DNA from: a virus
Direction: 5' to 3' (one strand)
IMG/VR virus record: IMGVR_UViG_3300009285_000003
Span: 1 to 64,000 of that record
Length of the DNA stretch: 64,000 bases
Positions 13,785 to 63,800 of the stretch are shown in pieces (position 1 is the stretch's first letter; the number at the start of each line of letters is the position of its first letter). A program made the translations under genes and the position numbers. The notes under the pieces were generated by a model. The model was not told the DNA's origin, did not search any database, and saw only the letters and a list, made by a program, of their open reading frames with translations.

Positions 13785-14068
13785 GTAATCTAGTAGAAGA
13801 CGTGAAGTTCCTCTATGATGAAATACTACTTAATCGCCTGATACCAGAATTTCACATGGACCACCTGTTTGCAGAGAAGCTCGGTATAACTGTTGAGGAG
13901 TTTCGAGCCAGGATAAATGCAGAGTGGGATGAGGACGAGTTGGTATCAGAGGTTCCAATGGTCAGCATCCCTCTTGATGACCCCTATTTCACTACTCCCT
14001 CAGACACACCTTTTCCCACTGAAAGAGAGAAGGAACTAATGAGAAAGATGTGGGGTCTTGGATGGTGA
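13781..14068 (+). CDS. hypothetical protein (contains element copy 2 in frame)
   Basis: The ORF track gives 13763-14068. ATG 13781 makes an ATGA overlap with the upstream stop. Confidence 0.6.
   Translation: MSNLVEDVKFLYDEILLNRLIPEFHMDHLFAEKLGITVEEFRARINAEWDEDELVSEVPMVSIPLDDPYFTTPSDTPFPTEREKELMRKMWGLGW
13926..13975 (+). repeat. dispersed element copy 2
   Basis: GGTCAGCATCCCTC lies at 13960-13973. The 5' flank GTTGGTATCAGAGGTTCCAAT matches copy 1. Confidence 0.8.
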
Positions 14069-14070
14069 GC

Positions 14071-14439
14071 CTAAACTATCGTAACTTGGTTTAGCAAAAA
14101 GGTTAACGTTCCACGACAAAGAGGATACCGCTCATCAGCAGCATTCTTCATCCAGATGTCAAAGTCATAAATAGTCTTTACTGTAAGAGAAGATGTAGCG
14201 CTAGCAGGGATGGTTAGTGTAGCTATTCCTCCGGCAGCATTCGTAATAGAGATGCCCCCTACCCCGCCGGAATCATAGGTTAAGGCTCCGGTCGTTCCTT
14301 GAGGATTAGCTTCAAAGTACACTGTAGCTCCTGTTAGGCTTTGTGCTGCACCTCCTGTCTTAACAGGGATACGAATAACTACGGTTGTACCAATTACTCG
14401 TTCTATCTCTACAAAAGGAACTTGGCCTTGAGTACTCAT
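14071..14439 (-). CDS. hypothetical protein (possible fibre-associated/structural)
   Basis: ORF track, 122 aa. It is the last gene of an ATGA-coupled minus-strand cassette. A paralog remnant lies next to the fibre gene. Confidence 0.6.
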   Translation of the reverse strand: MSTQGQVPFVEIERVIGTTVVIRIPVKTGGAAQSLTGATVYFEANPQGTTGALTYDSGGVGGISITNAAGGIATLTIPASATSSLTVKTIYDFDIWMKNAADERYPLCRGTLTFLLNQVTIV

Positions 14440-14612
14440 ACTTCATACACCTTAGCTTCTGGATTACTAGTCAAGTATACCTTGGCAAGTGGGGGAGAAA
14501 TCAGGTACCCCTGGGCTCCATCGGCCCAGTCTTTAACAGATGAAGCATGAAGCCACATTGCATAGAGGGTAACAGTACTAGAAATGAAGGGCAGTGTTAT
14601 AGTCTGAGTCAT
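14436..14612 (-). CDS. hypothetical small protein, 58 aa
   Basis: MTQTITLPFISSTVTLYAMW... has ATGA overlaps at both ends. It is below the ORF-track cutoff. Confidence 0.45.
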   Translation of the reverse strand: MTQTITLPFISSTVTLYAMWLHASSVKDWADGAQGYLISPPLAKVYLTSNPEAKVYEV

Positions 14613-16686: not shown

Positions 16687-17056
16687 TGCTCTCTAACCAC
16701 TCCAGGAAATCTCCAAGGGATTTAAACGTACAATCTGCCAGAGTATAGAACTGACTCTCCACCCAACCAATTACCACTACCCAAGCACAAGTACTAAGGG
16801 CATATCCATATTCGACATGTCTTCCTCCCCTACTTTTAGTATTTGGCTCTTCTGTAAAGAATACACATACATCTGCTTCTCGTATACGCTCCATATCTTC
16901 CTGGGCACAATCTTCCCATTTAGATCGATAGTCAGAATCTGGAATGGCTGTCCACAACCAACTACTAACTACCTCATGTCCTAAAGACCTAAGAGTTTCA
17001 GCGTGCCTTCGTAGTTCCCTTCTACGTTGAAAGTCAGCCCCTAGATAAATCTTCAT
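16664..17056 (-). CDS. nucleoside 2-deoxyribosyltransferase-like protein
   Basis: ORF track, 130 aa. MKIYLGADF...ADVCVFF...GGRHVEYGYAL resembles the family. The call is tentative. Confidence 0.45.
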   Translation of the reverse strand: MKIYLGADFQRRRELRRHAETLRSLGHEVVSSWLWTAIPDSDYRSKWEDCAQEDMERIREADVCVFFTEEPNTKSRGGRHVEYGYALSTCAWVVVIGWVESQFYTLADCTFKSLGDFLEWLESNDCPFSN

Positions 17057-17223
17057 GTATTAGGGTACTCCTCGTAGTGCTCATCATCATAGTAATCAAG
17101 GACTTCATCATAGGTAAGCCCCCGTACCTCTATTAAGTCCAGGCAGTGCCCACAAACATATACCTCATTTCCGATGTTGGCAACTGCCGGAGCCGGGCAA
17201 AATTGGCAATCCCTTTCATTCAT
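17053..17223 (-). CDS. small zinc-ribbon protein, 56 aa
   Basis: MNERDCQFCPAP...VCGHCLD. Its stop overlaps the downstream ATG (ATGA). Confidence 0.5.
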   Translation of the reverse strand: MNERDCQFCPAPAVANIGNEVYVCGHCLDLIEVRGLTYDEVLDYYDDEHYEEYPNT

Positions 17224-17372
17224 ACTTGCAGTCCTCCGTTGAGTGTGGTAAGATCGTCATGAGGGATGCTGACCGTTGGTGCCGACGATACCTCACAGTC
17301 GGGAAAGGAGACTCTTTTTAGAGTCTCTTTTTCATCTCCCTCCCCATCCTCCCGAACCAACTGGACAGCCAT
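17220..17372 (-). CDS. possible 50-aa ORF carrying element copy 3 in frame
   Basis: MAVQLVREDGEGDEKETLKRVSFPDCEVSSAPTVSIPHDDLTTLNGGLQV. Its stop overlaps the ATG of 17053-17223 (ATGA). The RBS is weak. Confidence 0.3.
   Translation of the reverse strand: MAVQLVREDGEGDEKETLKRVSFPDCEVSSAPTVSIPHDDLTTLNGGLQV
17261..17298 (-). repeat. dispersed element copy 3
   Basis: The plus strand reads GAGGGATGCTGACC at 17261-17274. The minus-strand flank CTGTGAGGTATCGTCGGCACCAAC matches copies 4, 5 and 6. Confidence 0.8.
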
Positions 17373-17465
17373 CCCCTGCAAAATGCTCTCTCAGTACCAT
17401 ATCTGACTCTCCTTCCAAGCTAGGGCCACCAGAAAAACAACAACAGCAACAACAAGAAGGTCCAT

Positions 17466-24561: not shown

Positions 24562-24755
24562 GAGCTAGTTTCCTCCACTCGGTGTATTAGGGTAGCCCTA
24601 TAGTTATCCAGAGCTTTTTCCCAGTTCTCTGGAATGGTACCATCAAAGAACCACTCAAAAAATTGAGTTACCTCATCAACTATTCTTAACACCTCTGTTA
24701 GGTTTTTGTACTCCTCATCGTTCTCCGTCAGGATGACATTACCAACTCTCTTCAC
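24558..24755 (-). CDS. hypothetical protein
   Basis: ORF track, 65 aa. Confidence 0.6.
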   Translation of the reverse strand: MKRVGNVILTENDEEYKNLTEVLRIVDEVTQFFEWFFDGTIPENWEKALDNYRATLIHRVEETSS

Positions 24756-27700
24756 TTCAAATCACTCCAATACTTACCCACATGGACATTGACTTTCATT
24801 TCCAACCCCTCCGGTCTAATCTTTGGCTCTGTCATATGTTTCACCTGCTGAGGAATCCACTTCTCCACTACTCCTTCTGGAACCTCATACACTAGCTCAT
24901 CGTGAATCTGGAGTAGCAGGTGAGCCCCATATTCTTCTGCTATGGGGTCTAATTCTATCATGGCTGCTTTGGTTATGTCTGCATTTGAGTTATGTGTTAC
25001 CACCCCACCTACTGCAAATTGACCATATTCTGCGTCTAGTACATCATACATAGGAACAGCCTCTCCCATTTCACTAATTGATCTTACCCGCTGTGCTCTA
25101 CCGTAAAGGGTCCCCCATTCCTTCTTCGGAATAACCCTGTATAACTTTTCCTGTTTCAATGGATTTAGGAACCCTATCCTTTGAGCAAAGGTCCCCACAT
25201 CTCGCTTTGCAACTTGAACTACGGTCCTATCCTTTTCATAGACTCTAATTCGACTGAAGATTCCAAACAATAGAAGCGCCTCTTGAACATCTTGTGCCCA
25301 AATAAGCTTTTTAGACCCCTTGCCAAAGGTTAAAATGGGGCCATCTTGAGAAACTGTACCATCTCCATCAAACAACCCTCTCAAGTAGGAAGAAAGAAGA
25401 GTACTACTACCCCATACAAAATCTGGGATACGCTGTTTAATTCCTTCTTCCTTCAAAAGCTTAGCTAAGGTTGCTCTGGATAAGGTTAAAGAAAGAAGCC
25501 ACTTTCCGGCGGACGGCTTTTGAACTGTACGAATGGTTAGGTGTCCGAGTCGAGCAAGCCCTTCCAATAGACCAGGAAGTATTTCGGCCTCGTGCTCAGC
25601 AACCAGCCAGGTCAACCCAGTTTTCAAAACACTACCATCGGATGCCAGCCTCCCAAGTAGCTCTCCTAGCTTCTCCTCCTCTATATCATTTAGATCTACA
25701 CTTATGCCATTGTGTGCTCTGGGCTTTTGGGACACAGGTAACGTTCTACTAGAACTCCAGAAGGGTGGGGTACTCGTCAATCGGACTCGATCCTGTCCCT
25801 TGATCTCGATAGGTTTCTTCCAAGACTGGACTCCTTTATTGTTCAAAATCAAGAACCTGTGATCGGAAGAACATTGGATAACCTGTCCTCCATATAGCTC
25901 CACCCTTATTAGGGACTTCAATCCACTTGAAACCACTGAAGCTTTGGCCCAGCGTTCTCCATCCCAAATAGTAACTTGTTCTCCAACTAGAAAGGCTATT
26001 GGAATACAGCCTGACTCCTTAGTAAGGATTCTAGAAGATCCTTCTACACAGCCTTGGATAGGCATGTTCACCGCCTCACGAAGGGCCTTCTGATGAAGTG
26101 CTGTAGCCCCCGGAAGACGGAGCGCAGGAAACTGCCTGACTCTTCCGGCTGGTGGTAGGGTCCGCATAAATCCATTCTGTAGTGCGAACTGTCGTTCGTC
26201 TGCCATATGCCTATGGAGTACGGGGTACCCTTCTCGGTGTAGTCTAAGGATTGCTCCTGCCTCTTCCATAGAAAGCCCCGTCTTTTCACTGATTGTATAC
26301 TCCTCTGCTCCATAAGGGATACCAAAGTTAATCGCCTTGGCGAGTCGCTTACTGATTCCTAGTTTTTGCATGGTGTCTTCATGGATGCTCCAACCAGGAG
26401 TTTTGTATCCTTCTACCAGTGCTGGATCTCCAGAGGCATGAGCCATGATACGCATTTCAATCTGATTGTAGTCTGCTCCAACAAAGACATATCCCTCTCT
26501 AACTTGATACATCAACCTGAACATCTCAGGCACCTGTTGTAAATTGGGTCCAGTACAGGACAGCCTACCTGTTTCAGTATTGCACTGATTAAAGGTGGCG
26601 TGAATTACACCTTCCTCACTACTAAGGAAGGTGGATAGCTGCTTCTGCAACCCTCGCTCCATAAGCAAAACTGTAATAGCTGGGTCCAGGTGCTCCAGTT
26701 GCTTCAGTACAAATTCATCTATTGCTGGTCTACCCGTACCAGTAGACTTCAGTACTGGATACCCTTTCTTGTTGTAAAGATAATCTGACATTTGGTCGTA
26801 GGACCTCCGGTCGAAGTCCATCCCCAAAGATACCAGCACCCCCCCCAAATTGTCAAGTTGAGCTTGGACTACTCCTCGCAGCGCCTCTCTTCTAGTTGGA
26901 TCTACTTCAATACCTCTGTCTTTCATCTTCATGAGAATGGGTAGAAGGGGCATCTCAATGTCTGTATAAAGAGGAGACCACATCTCCCAGGATTCAAGCT
27001 GTGGCTTGAAGATGTTGAACAGTCTGAGTGTGTGGTCTACGTCCCCACATGACTTAAGAGCTAGTTGCTCTAGAGGTAGCTGAGTAACATCTACCTTATC
27101 TGTACCAAACAAGTCCTTAAAGGTAAGGTGTCTCTCTCCCAAAACAATCTTTGTTAGTTCTTCCAGGGATTGTCCTTTATAACTAAGCAACCAGGACATC
27201 ACGCGAGTGTCATGAGAGTAGGCATTGTAGTTCCCTATTGCACGAAGGTCGAAGGGGGCGTTGTGCCATATGACCTGGTAGCGCCCGGATAACTCTGCTA
27301 TCAGGCCCCTCACCTGGAACCTATCATTATCAGTCCTCAGTGGGATGTAGAGCCCCTTCTTCTCTCTGCCTGATATAGACAATCCCAGTAAAGTTATATC
27401 TTCCAGCCCAACAGTTTCTGTATCCAGAGCTATTGGCTCCCCCACATCAGGCAATACTCGTCTGAGAGAAGAGGAGTTCCACTCCAGATCCTCAATCTCT
27501 TCAGTGTAGTACTCTTGCTTCTGTCGCACTAATGCAACAGTACCTCTTAGTACTGATTGCTCTGGCTTCTTTCGTTTACCTTTCTTCTCACAGTCATCTG
27601 GCCAAATGTAGGCCCTTGCTCCTTCTGGAACAGAGCCAAAGTGTTCGATGTCTGTGAAGTAGACCTCTCCTTCTCCTCCATATTGAATGGAGTCTGCAAT

Positions 27701-27772
27701 AGGAAACGCCTTTTGTACTTCCTCAGTAAGTTGAAAACAATCGGGCTCATCTATGAGGACTACTACTTTCAC
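24752..27772 (-). CDS. polA: family A DNA polymerase (3'-5' exonuclease plus polymerase domains) interrupted by an intein
   Basis: ORF track, 1006 aa. Motifs seen are Exo I IALDTETVGL, motif A GADYNQIEMRI, motif B RLAKAINFGIPYG and motif C LLQIHDELVYEV. Confidence 0.9.
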   Translation of the reverse strand: MKVVVLIDEPDCFQLTEEVQKAFPIADSIQYGGEGEVYFTDIEHFGSVPEGARAYIWPDDCEKKGKRKKPEQSVLRGTVALVRQKQEYYTEEIEDLEWNSSSLRRVLPDVGEPIALDTETVGLEDITLLGLSISGREKKGLYIPLRTDNDRFQVRGLIAELSGRYQVIWHNAPFDLRAIGNYNAYSHDTRVMSWLLSYKGQSLEELTKIVLGERHLTFKDLFGTDKVDVTQLPLEQLALKSCGDVDHTLRLFNIFKPQLESWEMWSPLYTDIEMPLLPILMKMKDRGIEVDPTRREALRGVVQAQLDNLGGVLVSLGMDFDRRSYDQMSDYLYNKKGYPVLKSTGTGRPAIDEFVLKQLEHLDPAITVLLMERGLQKQLSTFLSSEEGVIHATFNQCNTETGRLSCTGPNLQQVPEMFRLMYQVREGYVFVGADYNQIEMRIMAHASGDPALVEGYKTPGWSIHEDTMQKLGISKRLAKAINFGIPYGAEEYTISEKTGLSMEEAGAILRLHREGYPVLHRHMADERQFALQNGFMRTLPPAGRVRQFPALRLPGATALHQKALREAVNMPIQGCVEGSSRILTKESGCIPIAFLVGEQVTIWDGERWAKASVVSSGLKSLIRVELYGGQVIQCSSDHRFLILNNKGVQSWKKPIEIKGQDRVRLTSTPPFWSSSRTLPVSQKPRAHNGISVDLNDIEEEKLGELLGRLASDGSVLKTGLTWLVAEHEAEILPGLLEGLARLGHLTIRTVQKPSAGKWLLSLTLSRATLAKLLKEEGIKQRIPDFVWGSSTLLSSYLRGLFDGDGTVSQDGPILTFGKGSKKLIWAQDVQEALLLFGIFSRIRVYEKDRTVVQVAKRDVGTFAQRIGFLNPLKQEKLYRVIPKKEWGTLYGRAQRVRSISEMGEAVPMYDVLDAEYGQFAVGGVVTHNSNADITKAAMIELDPIAEEYGAHLLLQIHDELVYEVPEGVVEKWIPQQVKHMTEPKIRPEGLEMKVNVHVGKYWSDLK
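24989..26050 (-). mobile_element. intein with LAGLIDADG homing endonuclease, inserted in ...NMPIQG|SNADITK
   Basis: aa 575-928. It starts CVEGSSRILT, has block B SSDHRFLIL and dodecapeptides LGELLGRLASDGSV and SYLRGLFDGDGTVS, and ends GGVVTHN followed by +1 Ser. Confidence 0.85.
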
Positions 27773-30673: not shown

Positions 30674-33388
30674 TTAGCCACAACCCGTGGCTTCTCCGCA
30701 AGTGCCACAGACAAAACACGACCCAGAACGAGACATAATACCCCCACAGTTAGGACAGAGCATACCATGGGTAGTGGGAAGAGGGATGCTGACCGAAGGT
30801 GCCTCGTCCCTCACAGCCATGCCCCCCGTTGCCTTCCATATTCTGGTTGCCCACTCATCAAGTGCTTTTGTATCATCAACATACCCACCCATTGTCCACT
30901 CCGGTTTGAGAACATTGACGTTAGTGGAAACTGGCCAAGGTTCTCCAGGCTTGGGGATGTTCCACAGTGGGGCAAATAGAAACCTCTTCTCCATCCACTG
31001 GAAAATGTAATCCACTACTGACGTACAACTGGGGATGTTCTTATCTCCAGTAAACCCAGCAGGCTCAAACCTCTGTCCCTTGAGCTTCCGAGCAATATCG
31101 GCAAGGGGCACTCCATATTGTAGGGCCAGACTAACCATCACTGCAAAGCTGTCCATCAGCCCACCGAGTGTGCTGCCCTCCTTGGATATGGTAATAAATA
31201 GCTCTCCAGGTGTGCCATCAGGATAGAGCCCCACTGTAAAATATCCATCCTGACCCCCAATCTCGAACTTATGAAGGATGGCATCTCTGGTAGTTGGTAG
31301 CTTCTTACGAGTGCTACTGGGTACTGCAAGATATGAGGCTACTAGCTTATCCATTTCCTCTATCTCATCAGGGGTGTTCTCTTGTGGTCCTATGTACCTA
31401 GAGTCATCTGGTGAATCTACTCCCACAAAATCCCCTTCTATTAAGGTGCTCATTATCTGAGTAGTCTTGCTGTTATCTCTGTACACACTAATACTCTTCA
31501 ACCCTAGTTCCCACGCCCTAATGAACAACTCCCTTATCTGCTGAGGAGTAGTCTCTTCAGGCACATTGACTGTCTTAGAGATACCACCACTGAGATGAGG
31601 TTGTACTGCTGCCATCATAAGAAGGTGGTCTTCTATTGATACACGATTGCTGCCATCAGGGTTACCCATAGCAGTAGTAAATAGTGGGTTATAAAACCTT
31701 TCATCATAGGATAGAGAATTAGGCCAACATTCTGGAATGGTGGTCATACTGCCTCCACCTACTAAAGTCTTGACCTTATTAGGTGCATAGATAGGCTCAA
31801 TACCAGTACTATCACAATCCATCATGAAGCTAATAGTACCAGTAGGAGCAAGAAGTGTTAGTTGAGTGTTACGAATGAAACTTAGGTCTACAGCAAAGGG
31901 GCACACCTCAAAGGCTTCATTCCAGATACTACTTCTTGTGTAGTCCTCTAAGGAATCAAGGTGACGTTCCCAAACTCCTCTGGTGCCCCATTCTTCTAGG
32001 CCCTCGGCTGCCCCAAGCTTCACCCCCAGTTCAATACTAGTTGCATACGCCTGAGCATTCATAAGGGCTGTAATAGAAGCGGCTAAGTCTCTACCTTCTT
32101 CTGAACCATATGGCATCCCAGCCATGAACAACATTGTAGCAAGGTTTGTGTACCCCAGTCCCAACTCTCGATACCTATGAGCATTTTGTGCTATCTCCTC
32201 AGTAGGATAAGAGGACATATCCACCAGAATATCCATAGCCGTAATTAGAATATGGACAGTGTGCTTGAATCCCTCAATATCAAACTGCCCGTTCTTCCAG
32301 TACTTAGCCAAGTTAATTGAAGCTAGATTACAGGCAGTTTTATCCAGACTTAAGAACTCGCTGCAAGGATTTGATGCACGTATCTCTCCAGCCTTAGGGC
32401 GAGTGTGCATCCTGTTGATGGTGTCCTTAAACTGAATACCAGGATCACCACATTCCCAGGCTGCTTTTGCTATGAGGTTGAGCAAATTGGAAGCATTGTC
32501 TACAACCACCCCATCCCCCCATTTCTCAGAGGATGTTTGCCCTTCCTCTCTGTAAGTTAATCCCCATTCTCCACCTGCTATAGCGGCCTCCATGAAGTCA
32601 TCCCCCACCCTCACAGAGTTATTAGCATTCTGAAACTGGACAGAACTCCATGCTTCACCATTCAATCCGAGGTCATACCCTTCCCTTGCCAGCGCTTTCG
32701 CCTTTCTCTCTTCTTTGACTTTGCATTGGATGAACTCTCTGAGGTCTGGGTGGTCGTCATCAAGGATAACCATCTTCGCCGCACGCCGAGTCTTCCCACC
32801 CGACTTGACCGCACCAGCAATAGAGTCTGCTCCCCGCATAAAGGACACTGGCCCACTGGCTGTACCGCTGGTCGAAAGTGGCTCCATGCTTCCCCGCAAC
32901 TTAGACAGGTTAACTCCTGCGCCACTGCCTCCCTTGAAAATAAGGCCCTCATTACGATACCACTCCAGGATTGAATTGATGTTGTCTTCTACTGAGAGAA
33001 TGAAGCAAGCAGAACATTGGGGCTTTTCCTCCACTCCTACATTGAACCAGACTGGGCTATTAAAAGCTGCATGTTGGTTGAGAAGGAGGTATTCTAGCTC
33101 ATCAATGAAAATGAGTCCGTTATCCACGTCTTCATCTGTGTCAAAGTAGCGTAAGTCAAAATCTGCTATAGTGTCAGCTACTCTATGTACTAAATCCTCA
33201 ACATCAGTCTCCTCCCTTCTGAAGTACTTTGACGCAACGATATTAACTGCATCCTGGCTCCATGAAGCAGGTGCTCTAACTCCTTCCAACTTGAATCCAC
33301 TACCGGGAATCTCTGCTGTCCTTGTGACCCATCCAATAGATTCTGTAGGGTCCCAGTTTGTTGTAGTATAGTGACGGTTAAACTTCAT
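30674..33388 (-). CDS. nrdJ: ribonucleotide reductase, class II-like (single large chain with C-terminal zinc ribbon)
   Basis: ORF track, 904 aa. The active-site loop is SNPCSEF. The C-terminus reads CPNCGG...CFVCGTCG. No separate small-subunit gene is in the window. Confidence 0.75.
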   Translation of the reverse strand: MKFNRHYTTTNWDPTESIGWVTRTAEIPGSGFKLEGVRAPASWSQDAVNIVASKYFRREETDVEDLVHRVADTIADFDLRYFDTDEDVDNGLIFIDELEYLLLNQHAAFNSPVWFNVGVEEKPQCSACFILSVEDNINSILEWYRNEGLIFKGGSGAGVNLSKLRGSMEPLSTSGTASGPVSFMRGADSIAGAVKSGGKTRRAAKMVILDDDHPDLREFIQCKVKEERKAKALAREGYDLGLNGEAWSSVQFQNANNSVRVGDDFMEAAIAGGEWGLTYREEGQTSSEKWGDGVVVDNASNLLNLIAKAAWECGDPGIQFKDTINRMHTRPKAGEIRASNPCSEFLSLDKTACNLASINLAKYWKNGQFDIEGFKHTVHILITAMDILVDMSSYPTEEIAQNAHRYRELGLGYTNLATMLFMAGMPYGSEEGRDLAASITALMNAQAYATSIELGVKLGAAEGLEEWGTRGVWERHLDSLEDYTRSSIWNEAFEVCPFAVDLSFIRNTQLTLLAPTGTISFMMDCDSTGIEPIYAPNKVKTLVGGGSMTTIPECWPNSLSYDERFYNPLFTTAMGNPDGSNRVSIEDHLLMMAAVQPHLSGGISKTVNVPEETTPQQIRELFIRAWELGLKSISVYRDNSKTTQIMSTLIEGDFVGVDSPDDSRYIGPQENTPDEIEEMDKLVASYLAVPSSTRKKLPTTRDAILHKFEIGGQDGYFTVGLYPDGTPGELFITISKEGSTLGGLMDSFAVMVSLALQYGVPLADIARKLKGQRFEPAGFTGDKNIPSCTSVVDYIFQWMEKRFLFAPLWNIPKPGEPWPVSTNVNVLKPEWTMGGYVDDTKALDEWATRIWKATGGMAVRDEAPSVSIPLPTTHGMLCPNCGGIMSRSGSCFVCGTCGEATGCG
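30779..30827 (-). repeat. dispersed element copy 4 (inside the RNR C-terminal linker)
   Basis: The plus strand reads GAGGGATGCTGACC at 30781-30794. It is translated as ...GMAVRDEAPSVSIPLPT... Confidence 0.8.
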
Positions 33389-42250: not shown

Positions 42251-42322
42251 TCTCTTTAAGAACTACGTAGCAGTGTGTTATACTTAGAATATGGGTATTA
42301 CACAGTTGGAAAGGAGCTTCAA

Positions 42323-42928
42323 ATGGAGGCCAAAAAGTCTTGGATGAGTCAGACAAGGGGGTGGAGACCGATTTGGGTTTCCTATGCCGCCGCTCGAAAG
42401 CTGCAGATAGTAGTATGTGATCTATGTGGGGAGGATCAGAAAAAGGAATGTAATAACTGCTTTGATATTCTTCCTCTAGACCTATTCAATAAGGCTGTAG
42501 GTAGAAGTGGAGAGGTTTATTACGGAAGGAACTGTAGAAAGTGTATTTATAGTCTTAACCCAGGTAAGGCAAAAGACTCCAGTAAGAGGTGGAGAATGGC
42601 AAAAAAGGAGCTTGATCCTAGCCACTTCAGGAACACCACACAATTATATAGAGACAGGAATACCAGGTACATTGTGGAGTACCTCTTAAATCATCCGTGT
42701 GCTAGGTGTGGAGAGTCAGACGTTGAAGTACTTGAGTTTGATCATTTAGACCCCACTGAGAAGGAATATACCATAGCCCAATTGGTAGGGGGGGGAATGG
42801 GTCTGATAAAACTCCAAAAGGAGATGGCTAAATGCCAGGTTCTATGTTCTAATTGTCATAGGAAGAAGACCATTCAGGATAGAGGAGGCACCACTAGGAG
42901 CAAACTGCTAAATTCCCTTAACAATTAA
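42323..42928 (+). CDS. free-standing HNH endonuclease
   Basis: The ORF track gives 42275-42928. ATG 42323 is preceded by GGAAAGGAG. It contains CARCGESDVEVLEFDHLDP...CSNCHRKKT. Confidence 0.75.
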   Translation: MEAKKSWMSQTRGWRPIWVSYAAARKLQIVVCDLCGEDQKKECNNCFDILPLDLFNKAVGRSGEVYYGRNCRKCIYSLNPGKAKDSSKRWRMAKKELDPSHFRNTTQLYRDRNTRYIVEYLLNHPCARCGESDVEVLEFDHLDPTEKEYTIAQLVGGGMGLIKLQKEMAKCQVLCSNCHRKKTIQDRGGTTRSKLLNSLNN

Positions 42929-45557: not shown

Positions 45558-45758
45558 ATGGCAGAAATTGGAGGGCAGATGAATAGTGCTAATGCAGCCT
45601 GCACAGATGAGGCGCATTGCATGGAGAAGCAGGTGGGACATAGTTACCTTGATCCCTGGACCAGGAAGTTCCTGCAGAAGTTCGAGCACTACAAGCCTCA
45701 TGGCAGTAAGTATCTTGACCCCAGGATGAATAGGCAGGCTGAGGTGAATGATAAGTAA
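45558..45758 (+). CDS. hypothetical protein
   Basis: ORF track, 66 aa. TAAAGGAGAAGGAAG precedes ATG. Confidence 0.55.
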   Translation: MAEIGGQMNSANAACTDEAHCMEKQVGHSYLDPWTRKFLQKFEHYKPHGSKYLDPRMNRQAEVNDK

Positions 45759-46009
45759 TGGACGAGGAGTTTGACGACTCGGAGTCGGTCACTCCTAAGC
45801 TAACTCTTACTTTTGAGACTGGTTTGGTAGTGAGTGACTTCAACACCCTGGTCAACGAGGCCGGTATCTATGAGGGGCTTGCTGTGCAGCTACTGGAGAT
45901 TGCTTATCGCTACAGGGCAGAGAATCAGAAGCTCAACCAGGATAGGAGCTTCTTTGACCGCGAGATGCGGGCTCGTGATACACTTGAGAGAGAAATCAAG
46001 AAGGAGTAA
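45758..46009 (+). CDS. hypothetical protein
   Basis: ORF track, 83 aa. It has a TAATG overlap. Confidence 0.6.
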   Translation: MDEEFDDSESVTPKLTLTFETGLVVSDFNTLVNEAGIYEGLAVQLLEIAYRYRAENQKLNQDRSFFDREMRARDTLEREIKKE

Positions 46010-46383: not shown

Positions 46384-46404
46384 CTCCCTGCGACCTGGGA
46401 AAGT

Positions 46405-46430
46405 GGCGCTCTGGTAGCGCCGCTTTTCTA
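46405..46430 (+). terminator. rho-independent terminator
   Basis: GGCGCT-CTGGT-AGCGCC is followed by GCTTTTCTATTT. It lies 22 nt after the stop at 46383. Confidence 0.6.
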
Positions 46431-46498
46431 TTTATAGCAAGTTTAGTGAGTTTACCCCAGTTTATGCTCCGAGGCTAATTTCTTCATAAGTGAGGACT

Positions 46499-46552
46499 GA
46501 GGGGCTGTGAGTGATCAGAGGCACTCAACGGTCAGCATCCCTCTTTTGCTCC
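46499..46552 (+). repeat. dispersed element copy 5 (intergenic, upstream of the packaging genes)
   Basis: GGTCAGCATCCCTC lies at 46530-46543. The full match is GAGGGGCTGTGAGTGATCAGAGGCACTCAACGGTCAGCATCCCTCTTTTGCTCC. Confidence 0.8.
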
Positions 46553-46569: not shown

Positions 46570-46809
46570 ATGAAGACAGCAACCTTTTACTGCCAGGAGT
46601 GTTCTACTTCCCGTCCTATAACCAGCAATCCGATGCACACTCTTCTAACAGACGAAGCAACAGAGGCTCGGAGACTGGGGGGGAGACCTTTATCTGTTCG
46701 CTGTCCTGAATGCAGCATCACCACACAAATAGTCCTTAGCGAAGCTACAATCTTCCAGCTACGAAAGGAGTGGAAATGGAAGCAGAAGAATTCCTCCCTC
46801 CCGAACTAG
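46570..46809 (+). CDS. zinc-ribbon protein
   Basis: ORF track, 79 aa. It contains CQEC...CPEC. Confidence 0.55.
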   Translation: MKTATFYCQECSTSRPITSNPMHTLLTDEATEARRLGGRPLSVRCPECSITTQIVLSEATIFQLRKEWKWKQKNSSLPN

Positions 46810-53782: not shown

Positions 53783-54841
53783 ATGAACCAGTACTACGAT
53801 CCATACGCTGAGAATGACCCCAACTACTGGGGGCCTGACTCTGGAGATCAGATGTCAGCATATGATCCTAACCAGAACTTCAATTATGGTCAGGATATGT
53901 TAGACTATGGGTTGCAGTATGGAGATTCTTATCAGCAAGACTATGGGTATGACCCTTACTCCTCTAGTGGATACAACCCCTATGCTAGTTCTGGGTATGA
54001 CCCATATTCGACCTCTGGCTATGATCCGTATAGCACTGAAGGAGGGTATACTGATCAGTATGACCCCTATGCTCAGGATATTGGGTATGATCCTTATAGT
54101 GACCAGCAAGACTACTACGATGACTTCTCTGATATTGGGTACACTTTCCACAATGATCCCAGTTTGATACCTGGCTTGCAAACTCAGATACAGGACTGGG
54201 AAGAGCAAGTTTCTAGTAATCCTTCTGACCAGACTAATCAGAGGTACTTACAAGCCTCTAGGCAGCATCTTCAGCAACTGCAGAATCCTACATATCAGGA
54301 CGATGGCTACAATCCTTATGGCGAAGACATGGGATATGATACCTACGGGTATAACCAGTTTGACCAGAACCAATGGGATCCAGGCTACTACAATAACCAG
54401 GACCCATACGGAGACTATGGAGAAGGGGACTATGGGCAAACCCCTGAGGAAGCTCCTCCTTCTACAGTTGAGAAGTTTGATTATGGGAACACAGACATCA
54501 ATAACTACAAGACTCCTGATTTTGTACCCCCCAAGAGCACTGCTCCTACTCAGGAGGAAACCTTAGCACAGGCCAAGTCTCAAACACTTCCTAGCATGGC
54601 AGCACCACCTAAACCTTCCTGGCTAGAACAGATTGAGAGTGGAGAAGCATACAAACCCTACCATTCTTTTGGTAATAACCCTACTCCCTACCTCTCTCAG
54701 GAGCAGTACAACACCATGGACCCATCTGAATACGAGGGCTATATGGCCCTTATTCCTCAGTGGCAACAGCAGGACTTTGCACTCAATATGCAGAAGTCAT
54801 GGGCTCCTGGGAGACAACGTAGATCAGCGTTTATGAGTTAA
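53783..54841 (+). CDS. Tyr/Asp/Pro/Gln-rich low-complexity protein
   Basis: ORF track, 352 aa. ATG directly follows the upstream TAG. Confidence 0.6.
   Translation: MNQYYDPYAENDPNYWGPDSGDQMSAYDPNQNFNYGQDMLDYGLQYGDSYQQDYGYDPYSSSGYNPYASSGYDPYSTSGYDPYSTEGGYTDQYDPYAQDIGYDPYSDQQDYYDDFSDIGYTFHNDPSLIPGLQTQIQDWEEQVSSNPSDQTNQRYLQASRQHLQQLQNPTYQDDGYNPYGEDMGYDTYGYNQFDQNQWDPGYYNNQDPYGDYGEGDYGQTPEEAPPSTVEKFDYGNTDINNYKTPDFVPPKSTAPTQEETLAQAKSQTLPSMAAPPKPSWLEQIESGEAYKPYHSFGNNPTPYLSQEQYNTMDPSEYEGYMALIPQWQQQDFALNMQKSWAPGRQRRSAFMS
53940..54110 (+). repeat. degenerate in-frame tandem repeats encoding (S)SGY(D/N)PY(S/A)
   Basis: YGYDPYSSSGYNPYASSGYDPYSTSGYDPYSTEGGYTDQYDPYAQDIGYDPYS. Confidence 0.6.
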
Positions 54842-54844
54842 CAG

Positions 54845-57800
54845 ATGGCAGTTAAAAAGAAGCCGCTATTTGGAGGGTTCAATCTAACTCCTATTGAGCT
54901 TCCTAAGACGAATGCACTTGGGCTGCCGTTGCCCATCAATCAGGCCACTATTCCTGCACTAGCTCCACCCAGAAAGAGGCCCAAGCGAGAGCGGGTAAAG
55001 ATTAGTAGAGGTAGAACTAGCAGGTCCCAACCTGCAAGGTCCCAACCTGCTAGGTTGGACACCACCCCTCCTCCTGTTCCTCCTGTAGTTACACCTGTAC
55101 CTAAGCCGGAGCCCATGAGGATACAGAGGCAAGAGAGCAACCCTCGAATTGCCAAGCAAGTGGGTAGAACCACCAATGACTACCGTTCTTCTGTAGTAAG
55201 GAATCTGAAGTACCAAACCGGAGATACTAAATTCACCACTACTGACTTGGGAGTAAGTTTACCTTCTACTAAGAGAGACAAACTTTCAAGGACAGAGGCA
55301 TTCTCCCCTGTAACCTGGGCTCAAAAGTTTCCTGAAGCTAATGCTGCAAATATAACTAACTTCCTGGCTATTCGTGGATACCCAGCTAGTAGTATTGCTG
55401 ATGCTGCCAAGTATATTGCAGGTCAAGGGCATCTAACTGCCTTTGAGAAATACACAATGGCTGAGCAGTGGTCTAAGTCAAAAGAATTTGCCGATCCAGA
55501 AGCTACCCAAGAGCAAGAGATAATCAATAACTCTCCCATAAAGTTCAACGATAGTAGGGCTACTAAATGGGTAGCTTCAGTATCTTCTATAGCAGCAGGT
55601 CCCACTGGTGGAATTAACTCTGCCGATATGCCAGACTTTCTGAGGATGGCGTTGGCTATTATCATGCAGGAATCAAATGGGGATGAAAAAAGTAGCAATG
55701 TTAATCCTGCCACTGGAGATGATTCCCACGGTCTACTCCAGATTAACTTGGCTGGAGGACAGGGAATCCAGGTATTAGAGTGGTTTAAGGGGGAAGCAGA
55801 CCCTCGTGCAGCAGCTATTGCTTGGCTGGAAGACCCTAATAACAACTTGTCCCTGGGTTTAGGCCCTATCGCTAAAGCCTATTTAGCTCTCAAAAAGCAG
55901 CCAGATGCGGACAAGATGTCCGACCAATCACGTCTAGCTTTTGTGCTGGCTAACTCAGGGCATCCTAGAGAAGATGGAAACATAGAAGCTATACCACTAA
56001 CTTCTCGTATTGCCTTTGCTACCTGGTACGAACGATTGGGCGCTCCAGTTGGAGATATTGCAACAAGGTCTTCTACTACTATTGATTATTCCTGGAAAGA
56101 TATACCTCAAACATTAGAGTTTGGGTCTAAGGAGCCACCTTACGAGAACAACCCAGAAGGCCACCTGGGCACCGACTGGGCCGTGCCTTGGAACACTCCT
56201 TTGGAGGCTGTTGTCCCTGGAATAGTCTCTGTGGCTGGTCCCAACGGTGGCTATGGAAATATGGTAGAAATTACCTTCAAGATGGGGGACAGCGAATACA
56301 AAATGCGGTATGCCCACTTGAACTCTATAGCAGTAGAGGTAGGTCAGGAAGTTACCGCAGGACAAAATATTGGTGCCTCTGGGAATACTGGTTATGTAGT
56401 TGGTACCGCAGACCCAGAACATCCTGGAGCACACCTTCATCTTGAATTGCGTAAAGATGGTGTTCCTACTGATCCTCTAGAGTTTCTCAATATGGGCACT
56501 ATTGAGTCTACTTCTATGCAGCCCACATTGTTAAATGATGTAGTAGATAACTGGTGGAATCGAGCCTTGAATGCAGCAACATTAGAGGCCGGTAAGCCTC
56601 CAGAAGCAGCTAGTCCAGCAGTTCTAGATGTTGCTGTAGGACTGGAGGAAGCTGCAGGAAGCCCAGGAGACATACCAAAAGAGTCTCAGTTCCTACTGGA
56701 TGTAGAAACCGAAGACCCTTACAAAATGGAGGAATATCGAAAACAACTTGGGAGTTTTGTAACACCTATCTCCGAAGAAGACATAGATAGAATCCTCACT
56801 GAAACTGTTAAGCGACCCATCACCCCTAAAGAGAGGGAGCAAATAAAGGCAACTATTCTTAATGGGGACGAAGAGTTAAGAACATACGCTTTCAATGCTT
56901 ATGATCTCTTCATTCGTAATAAGATCAGAGAGCAAATGGATTCTCCTGGAGAGTCTTTAGTTGGAGACTTTTTGGGAGAGACCAGCAACGTAGCGGAGGG
57001 ACTAGCAGCTACAGTTTTTGGCCCATATGCTCACTTTGGTACAGAGTTACGAAAAAAGGCTGGACTGCCTGATGTTGGAGCACTAAATCTACTACTTTCT
57101 ATTCCTGCTGTAATAGCTGCACCCCTAATAATGGGGGTCGCTCCTCTTGCTGCTCCTGTGGCAGGATTGGCCGGTTATGTAGTTCCACAGACAGTTGATA
57201 ACCCCTATCTCTTCGACCCAGAGAAATCCATCCCTGAAAACTGGGAGAGGAACAAGGAACAATACACAAAGGAAAACCTGGGAGAATTTGTTGATTGGGG
57301 ACCGCTTCATATCTCCCCTCAAACTATTTCCTATGAAATGTTCCACATAGAGAATGTTGTACCGGCTAAGTGGTTTGCTGCTCCTGCTCAAGCTATGATT
57401 TCCAAGACAAGGGGATTCGGAGAAAGGTTCCTCAGTGGGGGCCGTACTGCTACCTGGTATAAGAGACAGGCTGGTACGGAGACTTGGCAGAAACTCGGTA
57501 AGATTCTTGCCACCGTTTATCCTGATAGAGATCTGAGAAGCATACAAGGACATGAGGTTCTTGCTTTAATAGATGGTTCTGCCCCCAAAGAGCTTTTAGA
57601 TCTGGTTCCCCCTGGGTTGTTAGATGATGTTGCATCGATCATCATAAAACCCCCACGTCCTGGGGATAAGGACATAGCTATTCTTGCCAGGTCATTGGGG
57701 GTTTCTACTCCCCATTATTGGCACCCATTGGAACGAGCAGCAATTGGGAACGATCTGGATAATGTACTCTTTGACCTCGCTAAGAAGATGGACAATGTAC

Positions 57801-60800
57801 AGAAGTCCTATAAGGGGGGTGGACTTGGAGCAGGCTTAAAGGAAGAATTGGATAAGGCCAGAAGTAATGCAGTACTCAGGATAGCTAATACTGTATCCAG
57901 AGGTTCAATGGATGATGTAACTGAAGCCCAATTTAACTACATAAATGATTGGGTAGAGTCAAAACTAAGAAGCTCCTTAAAAGGAAGCCTAACCACTGCT
58001 GCTGAGTCAGGTGGCAAGGCAATTGTACTGCCAGGGGCCATGGGGCGAGCCACTGACATAATGGCAGCAGTTAAGCGACATACGGAAACAGTATGGGATG
58101 AAATCTGGTTGAAGCACAAGTCTAAGATTGCCCAGGAGAGAAACAAGGTAGTCCAGGGGATGACGGACTTAGGATGGAACATGTCTTTGAAGAAGGCATG
58201 GACTACTGCTATGGAACCCTTCAATGTCCACCACACCAGAATGATTCTTGGATTCCCTGGGTTCCCCATGGGAAACGTACTGGAGGCCCAGGTAAATAAT
58301 GCGGTCTATGCGGGCAAGAATGCCCTAAAGTTTGGTGCCACTGACCACACTGCTACAGATTCCCTTATTGAGTTAATCACCTCAGAAAACCTACTTCCTG
58401 ACCTGAAGGGCTTCCTGCCATCGGGTCTAATGATAGACCAATCCGCCGACCTGGTAAAAAGGAAAGCAGTTGCACAGGCTTACTATGACGCCCTTAAAAC
58501 TACTGGTAGGTATCAAGAACTGGCCAAATTATTGGAGGTTATTGCTAACCCCGACCTTGATACCAGTCAGAAAGTGTGGTTGAATCTAAAGCGTAGGAAG
58601 AAGGCGTTAAAAGAAGGAGATATAAAGGAAGCCCTGTTCCCCCAGAAGAGGGCTCCTTCTGAGACTGGGCTAATGGCTGTCCCAGAAGCACTGGAGGAAA
58701 AGGTAGCAAGTAGGAAGGGTGTTTTCAAGGAGCCGGGTATAAAATCTGGACTTGAAACAGTTTTCACCGGCATTGAACACGCAACTACTGCTTCTATTTG
58801 GCACAAGGTAAATGATGTATTTGGCAGGAGGCTCCGAGCAAGGTTCATCCTGGAGTCGTACCATAAGGAGTTGCGTAAGTTAGCTAAAGAAGGTTTGGTA
58901 GCTCCCTCTACTTTAAGAAGTCTTCTTCTACGAGAGGGCCTGGAGGAAATGCCTACAGGACTACCTAAGTGGGCTAAGAAGCAGTTAGCTGAATATGTTA
59001 GACAGAACGTTGGCAAAGTGGGAGCCGAAGACCTATTCCGAAATCTAGACAGCTTTGTTTCAGAGGGCAAAATACTCAAGAGTAAACTAAATGAGTACAT
59101 CAGCCAAAAAGCCCCCTACATGCCAGAGAAAGTGAAACAACGGTTCTACAGTTTCTCCAGAGCCAGAGGAACCATTACCAGAAAAGAGTTAGATGATTTC
59201 ATAGAGACGGAACTTCGACCTATGATGTCATCAGAACTCTTGGCACAGGATTTGTTCCTTATGCCTGAGTATGTCCAAGAAGCCAAGGTCATGGTAGACA
59301 CCTGGAACAAACGACTCGGTGAGCCTAAAACAGTTACAGAACTACTTGACTACGCAAAAGCGCTGGAAAAGTATGGAGACTGGATTGCTGATTTCCCTGG
59401 CCGGATAAACCGAGAGGGGGCCAGATATGCGGCGAGAGGAGACCGTGCTTCTGCTGAGCTTATGTGGACCGAACTTACTAAGCATGTGGATGATATAAAG
59501 CAATTAGCTACCACTCATCGGAATCTTCTAGAACAAGTAACTGGTGCCCTTAGAAAAGAGGAATTGCACCAGTACGCAAATCAGGTAGATCTTCAAGCAG
59601 AACTTTCGGCTAAGATTGCTGAATACTGGCGTTTAGATCGAGAAGCAATTGCTGGTTTAAAAGACAAGTATGGCCCAGAAGCCTTTAAGTATAGAGATGA
59701 GTGGGTAACAGCCAGATCTGCAGTTTGGGACCAGTTTGATGTAGAAATGAAGACCTGGAAGGGCAAAAGGGTTGACCCACTGGTCTATGCTAGAGAAGTA
59801 ATAGATGCACTAAAACGCCAAGCAGACCAGGATGGTAAGATGATTCCCACTCTTCGAGAACTCTACCGACAGGCAGAGAAGAGGGGGGTGCTTACTCCCA
59901 AGGAAACTATGGCATCTATCAATCAGAACTTTCCAGGCTTATATGACAGAATTTTCCCCAAGCGTAATCAGATGGAGAAGCTACTAATCACAGAAAACCT
60001 TGATCCTAATAATAAGGCTAAGTTAGCAGACGAATTGGGTAAAATGTGGCGAGGCGAGGGAGACCTGAGTGCCTACCATGCTATGGAAGATAGATTCCAG
60101 GGCACAAGAGATATTGGTACTGTGGCAGAGTCCCTTCATAGAAAGTACCGACCAAAGAGTATAGACGACACTCCGTTGGTAGATATTGCTTACACTGACC
60201 AGGGACGACTAACGGAAATTGGAATTGAGTTAAGGACCCTCTCTCCTAACAGCATTGAAGCCGAAATCTTTGATACTGTCACTAAGCTAGAAAAGAAGGC
60301 CAAGGGAGAGTACACAGTTAAACTTACCCAGGGCGACGTTGCTTACCTGAAGGCTCGTGGGGTAGATGTAACCACTCTTCCTGGATACAGGCCTGGACCT
60401 ACACTCTCTCAACCTGATCTGGATAGCATCAGATGGAAGTTAGGCTCTGGAGAACCGCTTGGATTACCTCCTACTGAAACAATTCCTACAGGACCATCTT
60501 TAACAGAGAGGCTAACTGGAACTCCTGGTGAACCGCCTCCTGCTACCATGGCAGAAACCATTCCAGCAGAAGCTGTTTTACCAGAAACGCCAACTTCTCC
60601 ATTGCCAGACAACTTTGTAGCTCTTCAAGGTAAAATCTCTAAAATAACCAACAAAGCAACTGGGGATCAATTAGACTCAATGGTTTCCAAATTTGAAGAC
60701 TATATATCTTCTTTAGCCCCTGATTCTATGGTAGATAATGTGGTAGGGGACTCAGCAGATGACTTGCAAAGGTCACTGGCGGATATAATTGATTCCGTGG

Positions 60801-63800
60801 AAGAGCGATTGGGTGATAGGTCAGATGCAGTACTGGAATCTAGACTTGAGACTCTAAACGACCTAAACGAAAGGTTAGATTCTGTCATATCTGACTTGTC
60901 TGATTTAACCCCTGAAACAGTAATGAGGACACCAGTCTCAGAACCGCTATATGTTGGGCCGGTTGCCAAAAGTTGGAAAGTGGAGAAAGACGGACAGATT
61001 ATCCAAGGTGGGTTCCCCACAAGACAAGAAGCTGTAGATTCTGTACGAGACCGGGGAAGTGGTTTTACAGTAAGGCCGGAGGAGTGGACTTCAGCACCCG
61101 AGCCTGCTCCGGCAGAAATTCCTAAAGTAGCAGTGGGGCCAGAGGTATCAGATGCAGCATACGGCTTAGAAGTACTCGCCCCAGACCCCCGTAGTCCCAA
61201 TCGAGGATGGAGAGTACAACAAAGAAACTCAGGAGAAGTAGCAGACGGATTTGCCAATGAGCAAGAAGCTCTTCAGTATATTGAGAATGTTCGAGGAACT
61301 GAGTCAGCAGTTTTCCCAGAAATTCCTCCTGTGGAGGTTATTGGTCCTCCGCCGAAACTCCCTGCTTCCAGAGAGGCAGCAGTGGGGCCAGAGGTATCAG
61401 ATGCAGCAACGGTCAGCATCCCTCCTCAAGAAGTACCTATTACCTGGCCTACAGAACCAGGTACCTCCCTCCTTGGTACTAAGTTAGCTAAAGTAGTCAG
61501 AACACGCCGTTCAGACTTACTCACTGCTATCAAAAAGATACAGAATACCATTTCTGATGAGAATATTACTAACTCTAAGATGTTCTTTGATGCTCCCTTA
61601 GAGCAGCTAAAAGTACCAACACTAGATGCTCCATTTGGAGAGAGGTTAGCGTACTTCATTCGACTGAAGCACGATAAAGAATTAGCCTCAGGACTGGAAC
61701 AAGCTGGAGACATACTAACCTTTAATAGGTTAAAGACTGTAGATGGTAAAGTAGATGAGTTCATGCAGGAGATGCACTCTGCTATAGAGCAGGTTACAAA
61801 ACAGCCTATCAGTGATCCAAAGTTAAAAGGAGAACTAAAAGCCTATGGAAATCGGCTAGCTGACATGCAAAATAAGTTAACCGATGCCGAACGTAACCAA
61901 CTCAGTACTATGAAACGAAAGGCGTTCAAGAACTCTCTTGAAAATGTATCTAGAGCTTACACTAACTACAGTGACGGATATGCCCTAGATATGGCCATGT
62001 CTAAGGTGTTCCCCTGGTGGCAGTATGCTTCTAGAGCGCCCTTGCGAACTGTGGAACTCTATACTAGAACTCCCTTCTTACTCAGAGGAACCCTGAAATT
62101 CTTGGAAACCGCAGAAGAAGGTGGGTATGTCCCAGTTCCAGGTAACTTGGGCTGGGCCTTTGCCCCTGCACAAGGTACACAGTTCTCCAGACCTTTCCAA
62201 ACTTTATCTAACCTTGTAAATCGTGGAATAGGATGGCCTAAGTATGGTGGAGTTTTAGGCCAGGCAGAACAGGTTGTAAATGCCTTCCAAGCAAGTGGGG
62301 CGTATTCTCCCATGATGAGTAACCTCATTAGTCTTGGGGCCGCAGCAAGTGATAGAGACTTAAAGTTGGGTATGGACTCATATTTCGGGTCTACAGCACT
62401 ACAGATGTTGGGAGATGGAGCTTCTGCCTTAACGAACCGAATACCAAGATTTGGGATTGCAAAACCCGCTGCAGATTTGTACAACGATGTGCTGGAGGTA
62501 TTAGGGGACCCATACGGCGAAATGAAAATACTCATGTATTACTCTCGCCGTGGGTACTCACCTTCTACAGTTGAAGCGGCCCTAACTCTTAATATGAATA
62601 TTATCGCTAGAGAAGATGGCTCTGGACGAGTAGATCCTAAGATACTGAGACAACAAGCAGAAGACTACAACCGAGAAGTGAACTTCTTTTTCGATATGTT
62701 CGGGAATGTGAAGTCAACTGACCCTGGTATCAAGGAGTTTAAGAAGACCCTTCAGGGGTATTTAGTCAAAGCCATTATGACTGATCCAACTCTTTACAAG
62801 GCATGGAAAGCTGGAAATATAAACCCCTTTACCATGAACCCTAAAGACATTCTAAAGATGTTACCTCCTGCTCTCAGACGTAGGGTAGAGGATCTACCCT
62901 ATGGGTATATTTACGATAATGCGAATTACTCCTCTGTGTTCAATGCTCCAAATACCAGAGAGCGACAACAGAACATGAATGCTTACTTCTACTGGGAACA
63001 GTTAGAACGAGACAGGATGCTTATAGAGCAATCATCTGATGATGCTGCTTTGGCTGCTGGGATAAAGTCTGCCGGAGGACAGGGGGGAATTGACCACCAA
63101 ACCTGGATGGATCAACGTAAGAGTCGTATGGAACAGTTCCGTGGTGCACAGGATGCCCAAAGAGAACGACTTGGAGTACCAGCAACCTCTGCGGAATGGG
63201 ACCGTTATAACGAGCAAAATGGTGGAACTAGAGAGGAGTTACACCCTATTCGTCGAGCTATAGATGACTATTACTCCATAGCTCCAAATGCAGTAACCAA
63301 GCAATATTACACCCCAGATGGTCAGGTAGACTGGGCAGCTATTCAAGATGACAGAGATGCACTAATAAACTCACTTCCAGAAGCTGAGGCCCAGGCAGTA
63401 CTTGATGAGATTCAGAAATACATGACACCTACAGAGAAAGATTTCATTAGGGCTATCAGACAATTTCAGGACTTCAACGAGTTACCCAGATATGAAATTC
63501 CCAAGGGGTTTCCCTTAAAAGAAGGAAGGGTAGAAGAATATCTGAATGATAGGGAGACCTATAGCAAAATTACCAAAAACTGGAAAGAGCATAATGGGGA
63601 ATGGAACAAGCTGTCCAAGGATGATCAAAGAGATCTTGTTGGTGGGTCAATCTTCTATGATAAATGGGGTAATGAAGTATCAGCAGATCAAGAGTGGGTT
63701 AAGGAAGTAAAGGTAAGAGGACTTCTCTTTAAGTGGAGGTCCTTTGATCCAATAACTGGAAACTGGAAGAACCTGCTTAATAACCCTCCAGATAGCTCAA

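Follow-up and report, generated by a model that had tools for sequence, protein, structure and literature searches.

A dispersed 32-nt motif with an invariant core in the genome of an uncultured groundwater phage

The uptake signal sequences and DNA uptake sequences (USS and DUS) of Haemophilus and Neisseria are nucleotide-selected motifs inside genes, where they impose peptides in preferred frames. Promoters of T7-type RNA polymerases are repeated, asymmetric, highly conserved and lineage-specific; they span about 20-30 nt and sometimes lie inside the 3' end of the upstream gene. Stoperators, the repressor sites that block elongation in Cluster A mycobacteriophages, are asymmetric and occur genome-wide, on both strands according to the direction of the genes; relatives have some of them in synteny, and the consensus of a lineage tracks its cognate repressor (PMC6550527). 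The nick sites of tf/LUZ24-like, phiKMV-like and T5-like phages lie at similar positions in relatives, with a one-base consensus difference between lineages; co-evolution of nickase and site has been proposed, and the function of the nicks is unknown even in these model phages (PMC3517423). Rickettsia palindromic elements (RPE), finally, are repeats translated in frame within unrelated proteins at permissive positions (PMC10969869). Here we describe a motif of about 32 nt that occurs six times in positions 1 to 64,000 of IMG/VR record IMGVR_UViG_3300009285_000003 (hereafter the window, 64 kb in full).

The window comes from an uncultured groundwater phage whose circular assembly measures 66.8 kb (SRR2177362 / PRJNA292723); the phage is also found in ERZ27254811 and ERZ28563639. 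A megablast search of 10 kb against GenBank phages found no close cultured relative, and the TerL protein is only 22-26% identical to those of cultured phages. We put the probability at roughly 55% that the six copies of the motif are cognate recognition sites for one phage-specific factor that reads their sequence, most likely a DNA-binding protein. Of the known systems, stoperators and phage nick sites come closest, although the copies depart from each class in at least one defining trait. USS and DUS are more distant: they are 9-12 nt long, tied to competence and present in hundreds to thousands of copies per bacterial genome, whereas here there are six copies in a 67-kb phage.

An invariant core at six sites

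The window contains the 14-mer GGTCAGCATCCCTC at six positions and no more: 4126(-), 13960(+), 17261(-), 30781(-), 46530(+) and 61411(+); we number these copies 1 to 6. With up to two mismatches allowed, 0.47 occurrences would be expected by chance, and none of 100 shuffles reached six. The window holds no variants of the 14-mer with one or two mismatches, and allowing three adds matches at chance level only. There is no seventh copy in the 2.8 kb of the circular assembly beyond the window. The initial annotation had given the element a range of 13926-61425, outside which copy 1 falls.

The 14-mer is the invariant 3' core of the asymmetric full motif, GGTATCAGAGGCACCAACGGTCAGCATCCCTC, which consists of GGTATCAGAGGCACCAAC followed by the core. 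Its layout has two parts, with a tolerant 5' half (GGTATCAGAGGCACC) separated from the core by a spacer of 2-4 nt. The spacer is 1 nt shorter than is typical in copy 1 and 1 nt longer in copy 5, and copy 4 has a diverged 5' half. By alignment and anchored extension, similarity continues for about 18-30 nt on the 5' side of the core in most pairs of copies (p<=0.003 in 12 of 15 pairs); on the 3' side it continues only between copies 1 and 5. The wider unit common to the copies comes to about 45-55 nt, including weak, mosaic flanks and indels. While the core is identical in all six copies, the flanks are merely about 54% identical. An all-or-none core with diverged flanks is what selection on the site leaves, and not the decay of inserted copies.

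The sites stand at fixed positions, one per roughly 3-16 kb, with three on each strand. Five of the six are co-oriented with their own gene block and copy 1 is opposite (two-sided p about 0.22).

The motif has no detectable structure. It contains neither a palindrome nor terminal inverted repeats, RNAalifold on 11 copies gave -1.8 kcal/mol with 0 compensatory pairs, and the fold z-scores of single copies ran from -1.46 to +0.63, with predicted structures differing from copy to copy. Flanking stems that seemed by eye to covary (ATCA/TGAT, ATCGTC/GACGAT, GGGA/TCCC) were rejected by RNAalifold and the shuffle z-scores. Across the whole window, no match reached an Rfam gathering threshold and no tRNA or tmRNA was found. 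Consensus scans for sigma-70 promoters and intrinsic terminators stayed at or below shuffle expectation, with nothing at the sites. A resemblance by eye to sigma-54 or extracytoplasmic function (ECF) promoters was dropped, as the spacing was wrong and the positions were not conserved.

Hosts and surroundings of the copies

Copy 1 (4126..4156, - strand, 31 nt) lies antisense within a glycosyltransferase gene, 3755-4762(+), which reads the reverse complement of the motif as KRDADRGTSDT. The initial annotation had noted an open antisense frame here, in an open reading frame (ORF) track at 3947-4210; this track is not coding, and the real gene is the one on the + strand. A profile search, an AlphaFold model (predicted template modelling score, pTM, 0.72) and Foldseek all assign its product to the GT-B fold (GT4-like). 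In the model, the stretch encoded by copy 1 (residues about 122-134) is the sole internal segment of more than three residues with a local confidence (pLDDT) below 50 (residues 121-133). It is predicted to form an inter-domain loop between the two Rossmann halves, joining the last strand of the N-domain to the first of the C-domain. The model thus agrees with the initial annotation, which had expected a loop location in this protein. Distant glycosyltransferase homologues have the same linker length at this point (0 to +4 residues), and the segment is thus no inserted block. An insertion of 12-17 residues into the host protein, as had been suggested, was therefore not found in this alignment.

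Three copies are securely coding in the sense direction. Copy 2 (13942..13973, +) is read in frame (..LVSEVPMVSIPL..) in a 101-aa ORF, 13763-14068, the last gene of its + block, and the V of its VSIP is residue 67. Copy 4 (30781..30812, -) is in frame (..RDEAPSVSIPL..) at residues 859-870 of a class II ribonucleotide reductase (RNR) encoded at 30674-33388(-); its V is residue 866, between the TSCPD domain (708-801) and the Cys-rich C-terminal tail with its CxxC motif. Copy 6 (61393..61424, +) is in frame (..PEVSDAATVSIPP..) at residues 2183-2194 of a 3033-aa virion protein (54845-63946) with an M23 peptidase domain. Its V is residue 2190, and the site is a linker rich in Pro, Ala and Glu that follows a small repeated domain. 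A half copy of 31 nt at 61129..61159 (+) is identical to 61378-61408, comprising the 5' half and upstream flank with the core absent; it lies 249 nt upstream of copy 6, one 83-residue, otherwise diverged domain repeat away. The earlier view that the embedded copies occupy linkers or loops holds for copies 1, 4 and 6.

Neither of the other two copies is securely coding. Copy 3 (17261..17292, -) falls in an ORF of 50-53 aa, 17220-17381(-), of which the coding status is doubtful: its codon score is 0.02, against 0.18-0.35 in real genes, and it contains a terminator-like hairpin (GAGACTCTAAAAAGAGTCTC). The copy lies about 20 nt past this hairpin and about 35 nt ahead of the start of a zinc-ribbon gene (17223-17053). 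Copy 5 (46511..46543, +, 33 nt) is upstream of the terminase genes, with a terminator-like hairpin at 46404-46432 on one side and a small zinc-ribbon ORF (46570) on the other. The initial annotation had noted that the frame is open here too; the copy itself is non-coding. Gene starts are preceded by copies 3 and 5, and perhaps copy 4, only; copies 2 and 6 are not near any.

Zinc-ribbon sequences recur beside the motif. A small CxxC...CxxC zinc-ribbon ORF follows 25-35 nt downstream of both copy 3 (17053-17223(-)) and copy 5 (46570-46809(+)), and in copy 4 the Cys-rich tail of RNR (30674-30760(-)) begins 9 codons downstream. This may be a coincidence or a link.

Copies 2, 4 and 6 are translated as ..VS..VSIP, and the VSIP frame is the ORF frame in copies 2, 3, 4 and 6. 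Of the four in-frame copies in the initial annotation, copies 2, 4 and 6 stand, and in copy 3 the frame matches with no clear coding signal. With only three secure sense-coding copies, the probability of a shared frame by chance is 1/9.

A recently spread small mobile element, of RPE type or a miniature inverted-repeat transposable element (MITE), with in-frame insertions in unrelated genes would account for some of this. The common unit of 45-55 nt, with its indels and mosaic flanks, suggests descent by copying and not convergence, the embedded copies are in loops, and the four sense copies within ORFs share one frame in the window. However, RPE are about 150 bp long, palindromic and absent from orthologues, while this motif is 32 nt, unstructured, present in orthologues (see below) and neutral in length in the one host aligned, that of copy 1. 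The perfect core amid diverging flanks, the lack of terminal inverted repeats or a palindrome and the lack of a length insertion in the copy 1 host also speak against insertion, and the initial comparison with RPE does not survive them.

Syntenic copies that change in concert

We compared the window with lineages A' (contigs L016/L017), B (L014 and L018) and C (L026 and L041, from the same Hainich sample). Reads of these lineages are in SRR25508616 for that of L016, ERZ13692958/ERZ13693047 for B and Hainich H43 ERZ1292632 for C. Copies 1, 2, 4 and 6 have orthologous copies at the same positions in these lineages, visible as islands of nucleotide identity; host proteins, compared for copies 1 and 6 only, are 44-77% identical. 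In lineage A' the antisense copy 1 (L016:1047(-)) keeps the exact core amid synonymous changes in a gene whose protein is 77% identical. In lineage B, where L014 and L018 are one phage (326-nt overlap, 100%), the core has become GGTCGGCACCCCTC (A5G and T9C) at both copy 6 (L014:7647-7678) and copy 1 (L018:422(-)), and these two copies are 29/32 identical to one another. In lineage C it is GGTCAGCACCCCTC (T9C) at both copy 2 (L026:944-975) and copy 4 (L041:2548-2578). Each lineage thus has one variant at every copy seen, and the two variable core positions differ by transitions only. By inference, the same one or two substitutions, and no others, would arise independently in two paralogues with a probability below about 1e-3 per lineage at 70-80% nucleotide identity.

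The islands are clearest where the surroundings have diverged. The lineage B orthologue of copy 6 is the stretch of highest identity (84%) in the whole locus comparison and is read as TVGTPP. The orthologue of copy 2 in L026 is a 41/44 identity island in otherwise unalignable DNA; it begins 7 nt past the stop of the conserved upstream gene, and the ORF that hosts copy 2 in the window is not conserved. In L041 the orthologue of copy 4 lies in the RNR linker. Its canonical 5' half is still read VSEAP, but the spacer has lost 1 nt relative to the window, so that the core falls in another frame and is read as RSAPL. The core variants are nonsynonymous in different hosts, changing KRDADR to KRGADR (D to G) in the glycosyltransferase and VSIP to VGTP (SI to GT) in the virion protein. 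The antisense orientation of copy 1 is kept in three lineages. A synonymous-site test at this copy was marginal (8/9 and 6/8 identical codons vs 57% and 44% gene-wide).

Translation of the motif is incidental, since the core is frame-shifted in L041, antisense in copy 1, non-coding in copy 5 and located after a stop codon in L026. A common reading frame, central to the initial annotation, is therefore not a conserved property. A conserved peptide, a short linear motif ..VS..VSIP.. with a function in the protein, would explain why copies 2, 4 and 6 and the copy 6 orthologue look alike when translated. However, the codons are identical in every copy, and lineage B shifted to VGTP in step with an antisense copy; we regard a peptide unit as refuted, because the nucleotides are kept even in copies that are antisense, non-coding or frame-shifted. 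The initial annotation had itself concluded that selection, or else recent spread, acts on the nucleic acid and not on the peptide alone. Selection is borne out, as orthologous copies keep their nucleotides while frame, strand and coding status differ. Recent spread is not: copies at the same positions in lineages this far apart point to sites that are old and positionally maintained, not recently inserted. Together with the frame lost in L041 and the absence of the motif outside this phage group in IMG/VR, GTDB and JGI contigs, this makes a mobile element very unlikely and largely refutes it.

Crossover sites of a site-specific recombinase (of shufflon or Gin/Cin type) that swaps gene ends would fit the invariant core with its variable arms, the inverted pairs (copies 2/3 and 6/1) and the shared frame in the window, which would keep fusions in frame. 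We consider such swapping extremely improbable. Across the sites, the independent contigs L027, L037, L039, L008 and L009 keep the order of the window, the partners would be unrelated essential genes, the frame is lost in L041, and scans with Pfam and PHROG profiles found no recombinase. These scans took in nearly all ORFs >80 aa, so that small unannotated ORFs remain.

Outside this phage group, the motif is absent from IMG/VR, from reference genomes (GTDB) and from JGI contigs, where matches are at chance level only. IMG/VR was scanned with a 16-mer and with the two-part pattern, and its matches include one unrelated prophage sequence repeated six times; non-homologous JGI matches were counted as chance. 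No motif could be recognised in the available 3.6-14.5 kb of the more distant relatives L011, L012 and L048, whose TerL identity is 40-44%, and a literature search did not find the 14-mer core.

Two further observations concern the host genes. In L014:976-10647 two ORFs, of 2163 and 1046 aa, take the place of the single giant virion protein, with the copy 6 orthologue about 140 nt into the second; copy 6 may originally have been near a gene junction. The 3' end of the GT-B gene (window 4680-4720, codons ~308-320) has 94-97% nucleotide identity between lineages, in genes otherwise 68-79% identical, and forms a second, unexplained island of nucleotide conservation.

Candidate factors and possible roles

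Four features lead us to see the copies as cognate recognition sites read in trans at the nucleic-acid level: their core is all-or-none, they are syntenic, they change in concert within a lineage, and they depend on neither frame nor strand nor coding status. We infer the existence of such a factor, its reading of DNA and not of RNA, and how it might act: it would be a regulator or a site-specific nickase, with a regulatory or roadblock role ranked slightly above nicking. On this reading the phage would keep its sites at fixed genome positions, and a site within a gene would occupy a loop or linker, whichever the strand and in any frame that the protein tolerates. The VS..VSIP peptide would be a by-product of the site. 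If the specificity of the factor shifted, all sites would shift along with it, altering residues in unrelated proteins.

Several points weigh against recognition in trans. No trans-acting factor was identified, and the profile scans of nearly all ORFs >80 aa found no repressor-like helix-turn-helix (HTH) protein, recombinase, RNA polymerase or integrase. The concerted change comprises only two copies in each of two lineages. The orientation bias is not significant and so indicates no particular process. Paralogous copies also share patches of sequence, namely 25 identical nt in copies 1 and 5, 31 nt in copy 6 and the half copy, CTGTGAG in copies 3, 4 and 5, and GGGGGGCAT flanks, and this mosaic identity suggests copying or gene conversion between sites, which could yield concerted change without any trans factor. 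Copying or conversion may be part of why the sites change in concert, and an origin by copying is still conceivable; the mosaic identity lends no support to recent, RPE-like spread.

A regulatory role would be closest to that of stoperators, and here too we find an asymmetric, dispersed short site with a lineage-specific consensus (three core variants). However, stoperators are 13 bp long with 20-30 per genome, compared with 32 nt (14-nt core) and six copies here, three or four of them translated. Stoperators also belong to temperate phages with an HTH repressor, whereas the profile scans found no repressor or lysogeny genes in this phage, and they follow the direction of transcription, which our copies do in five of six cases, a share compatible with chance. 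As for promoters of the T7 type, no phage RNA polymerase was detected, and copies 1, 2 and 6 have no gene to drive. The 3033-aa virion protein does not contain an RNA polymerase either; only its M23 peptidase domain matches PDB, Pfam or PHROGs.

Localized single-strand interruptions offer another explanation, in which a phage nickase, for instance an HNH endonuclease, would cut virion or replicating DNA at the core and repair from other copies would homogenize the flanks. Known phage systems have from a few to 14 dispersed consensus sites at similar positions in relatives and with a lineage-specific consensus (PMC3517423), much as seen here, and the patches of 25 and 31 nt shared by paralogues fit break-induced conversion. 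A free-standing HNH endonuclease gene (42275..42928, +; phrog_2255, E=4.6e-29) lies near the packaging genes; apart from the inteins, no other sequence-specific DNA enzyme is annotated. As a trans-acting factor it is a speculative candidate, with no direct link to the motif. Further candidates would be the small zinc-ribbon proteins beside copies 3 and 5 and early ORFs that lack annotation. Moreover, all nick sites in T5, phiKMV-like phages and tf are on a single strand, with a consensus of 7-20 nt, whereas our sites are 32 nt long and split evenly between the strands. On balance we hold nick sites to be a possible but unlikely explanation.

The motif could also act in RNA, bound or cut in transcripts by an RNA-binding protein or nuclease, or through pairing of the antisense copy in the copy 1 host mRNA with the five sense copies. 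Five of the six copies are on the transcribed sense strand, copies 3 and 5 are in leaders 25-35 nt ahead of gene starts, a duplex of copies 1 and 5 would be 25 bp long and perfect, and G-U wobble would tolerate transitions at the two variable core positions, although this last argument concerns those two positions only. The motif has, however, neither conserved structure nor an Rfam family, copies 2 and 6 are away from gene starts, and copy 1 has kept its antisense orientation in three lineages with no antisense transcript evident. An RNA-level motif thus seems distinctly improbable to us. Slightly less doubtful, and still quite unlikely, is that this is a lytic phage with an undescribed system acting genome-wide, of which the copies are the cis half, with strand-specific marks or nicks on both strands at fixed positions or an antisense copy 1 that pairs with the five sense copies. 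Short-patch copying between the sites would then keep them identical, and the sites would be strong enough to overwrite protein sequence in essential genes such as those for RNR, the glycosyltransferase and the giant virion protein.

The genome in which a recognition factor would have to be sought has two gene blocks. The + block runs from 42 kb through the wrap to 14 kb and holds structural, lysis and glycosyltransferase genes; the - block runs from 41.6 to 14.07 kb and holds genes for replication and nucleotide metabolism, and GC skew tracks this layout. Annotated products include TerL, the M23-bearing 3033-aa virion protein, a capsid protein, DNA polymerase A, two glycosyltransferases, class II RNR with TSCPD, a helicase, an ERCC4 nuclease, a protein like uracil-DNA glycosylase (UDG), a Cas4-like exonuclease and the HNH endonuclease. 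The profile scans found no ParAB. There are two inteins: one of HNH type lies in one of the glycosyltransferases, a TPR/GT2/GT4 protein (gene 226-3558; intein about 2361-3292), and is absent from the relative L014, and one of LAGLIDADG type lies in DNA polymerase A (24752-27772). An intein homing site was rejected as an identity for the motif, which is unlike the intein-less glycosyltransferase allele and the DNA polymerase junctions.

Other repeats were seen in the same genome. A 57-nt inverted repeat (35723-35779/42194-42250, 84% complementary) holds the palindrome TTGCTAGCAAG; both arms are intergenic and flank a GC-rich (58%) region at 40-42 kb at the GC-skew minimum, and they may be divergent early promoters or an origin region. 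An 86-nt inverted repeat (10795-10880/14078-14163, 74% complementary) has one arm intergenic in the + block and the other in the - block, where it lies at the 3' end of the first gene. Small adjacent ORFs start at a 27-nt direct repeat (45081, 45355 and 45538), whose sequence (CTAAGTAAAGGAGAA.GAAGATGGCAG) takes in a ribosome-binding site and the ATG, and the strain contig L009 has an insertion of about 117 nt near 45752-45760. Just ahead of the giant virion protein, a 352-aa protein with many Tyr, Asp and Pro residues contains GYDPY-type units encoded by a 24-nt tandem repeat (53944-54031), which is conserved in L014. Contigs L011 and L012 (53 and 57 kb) both start about 2.9 kb upstream of TerL (about window 44.6 kb), which may mark a physical genome end or terminal repeat of the phage group.

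Across all the collections scanned, only this phage group has the motif, and its copies are best classed as dispersed, co-evolving phage recognition sites of a known general kind. They are unusual in being long, few and mostly intragenic on either strand, and in demonstrably overriding protein sequence. As a nucleic-acid signal of 14-32 nt that is held through coding sequence and mutates in step across unrelated genes, the motif offers a natural example of overlapping protein and nucleic-acid constraints. For annotation, it means that short peptides common to unrelated phage proteins can be shadows of DNA signals. The motif could also serve as a lineage barcode to join fragmented metagenomic contigs of one phage. 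Above all, it provides a handle on a sequence-specific factor, be it a regulator, a nickase or a component of packaging or replication, in a phage group that has no cultured member.

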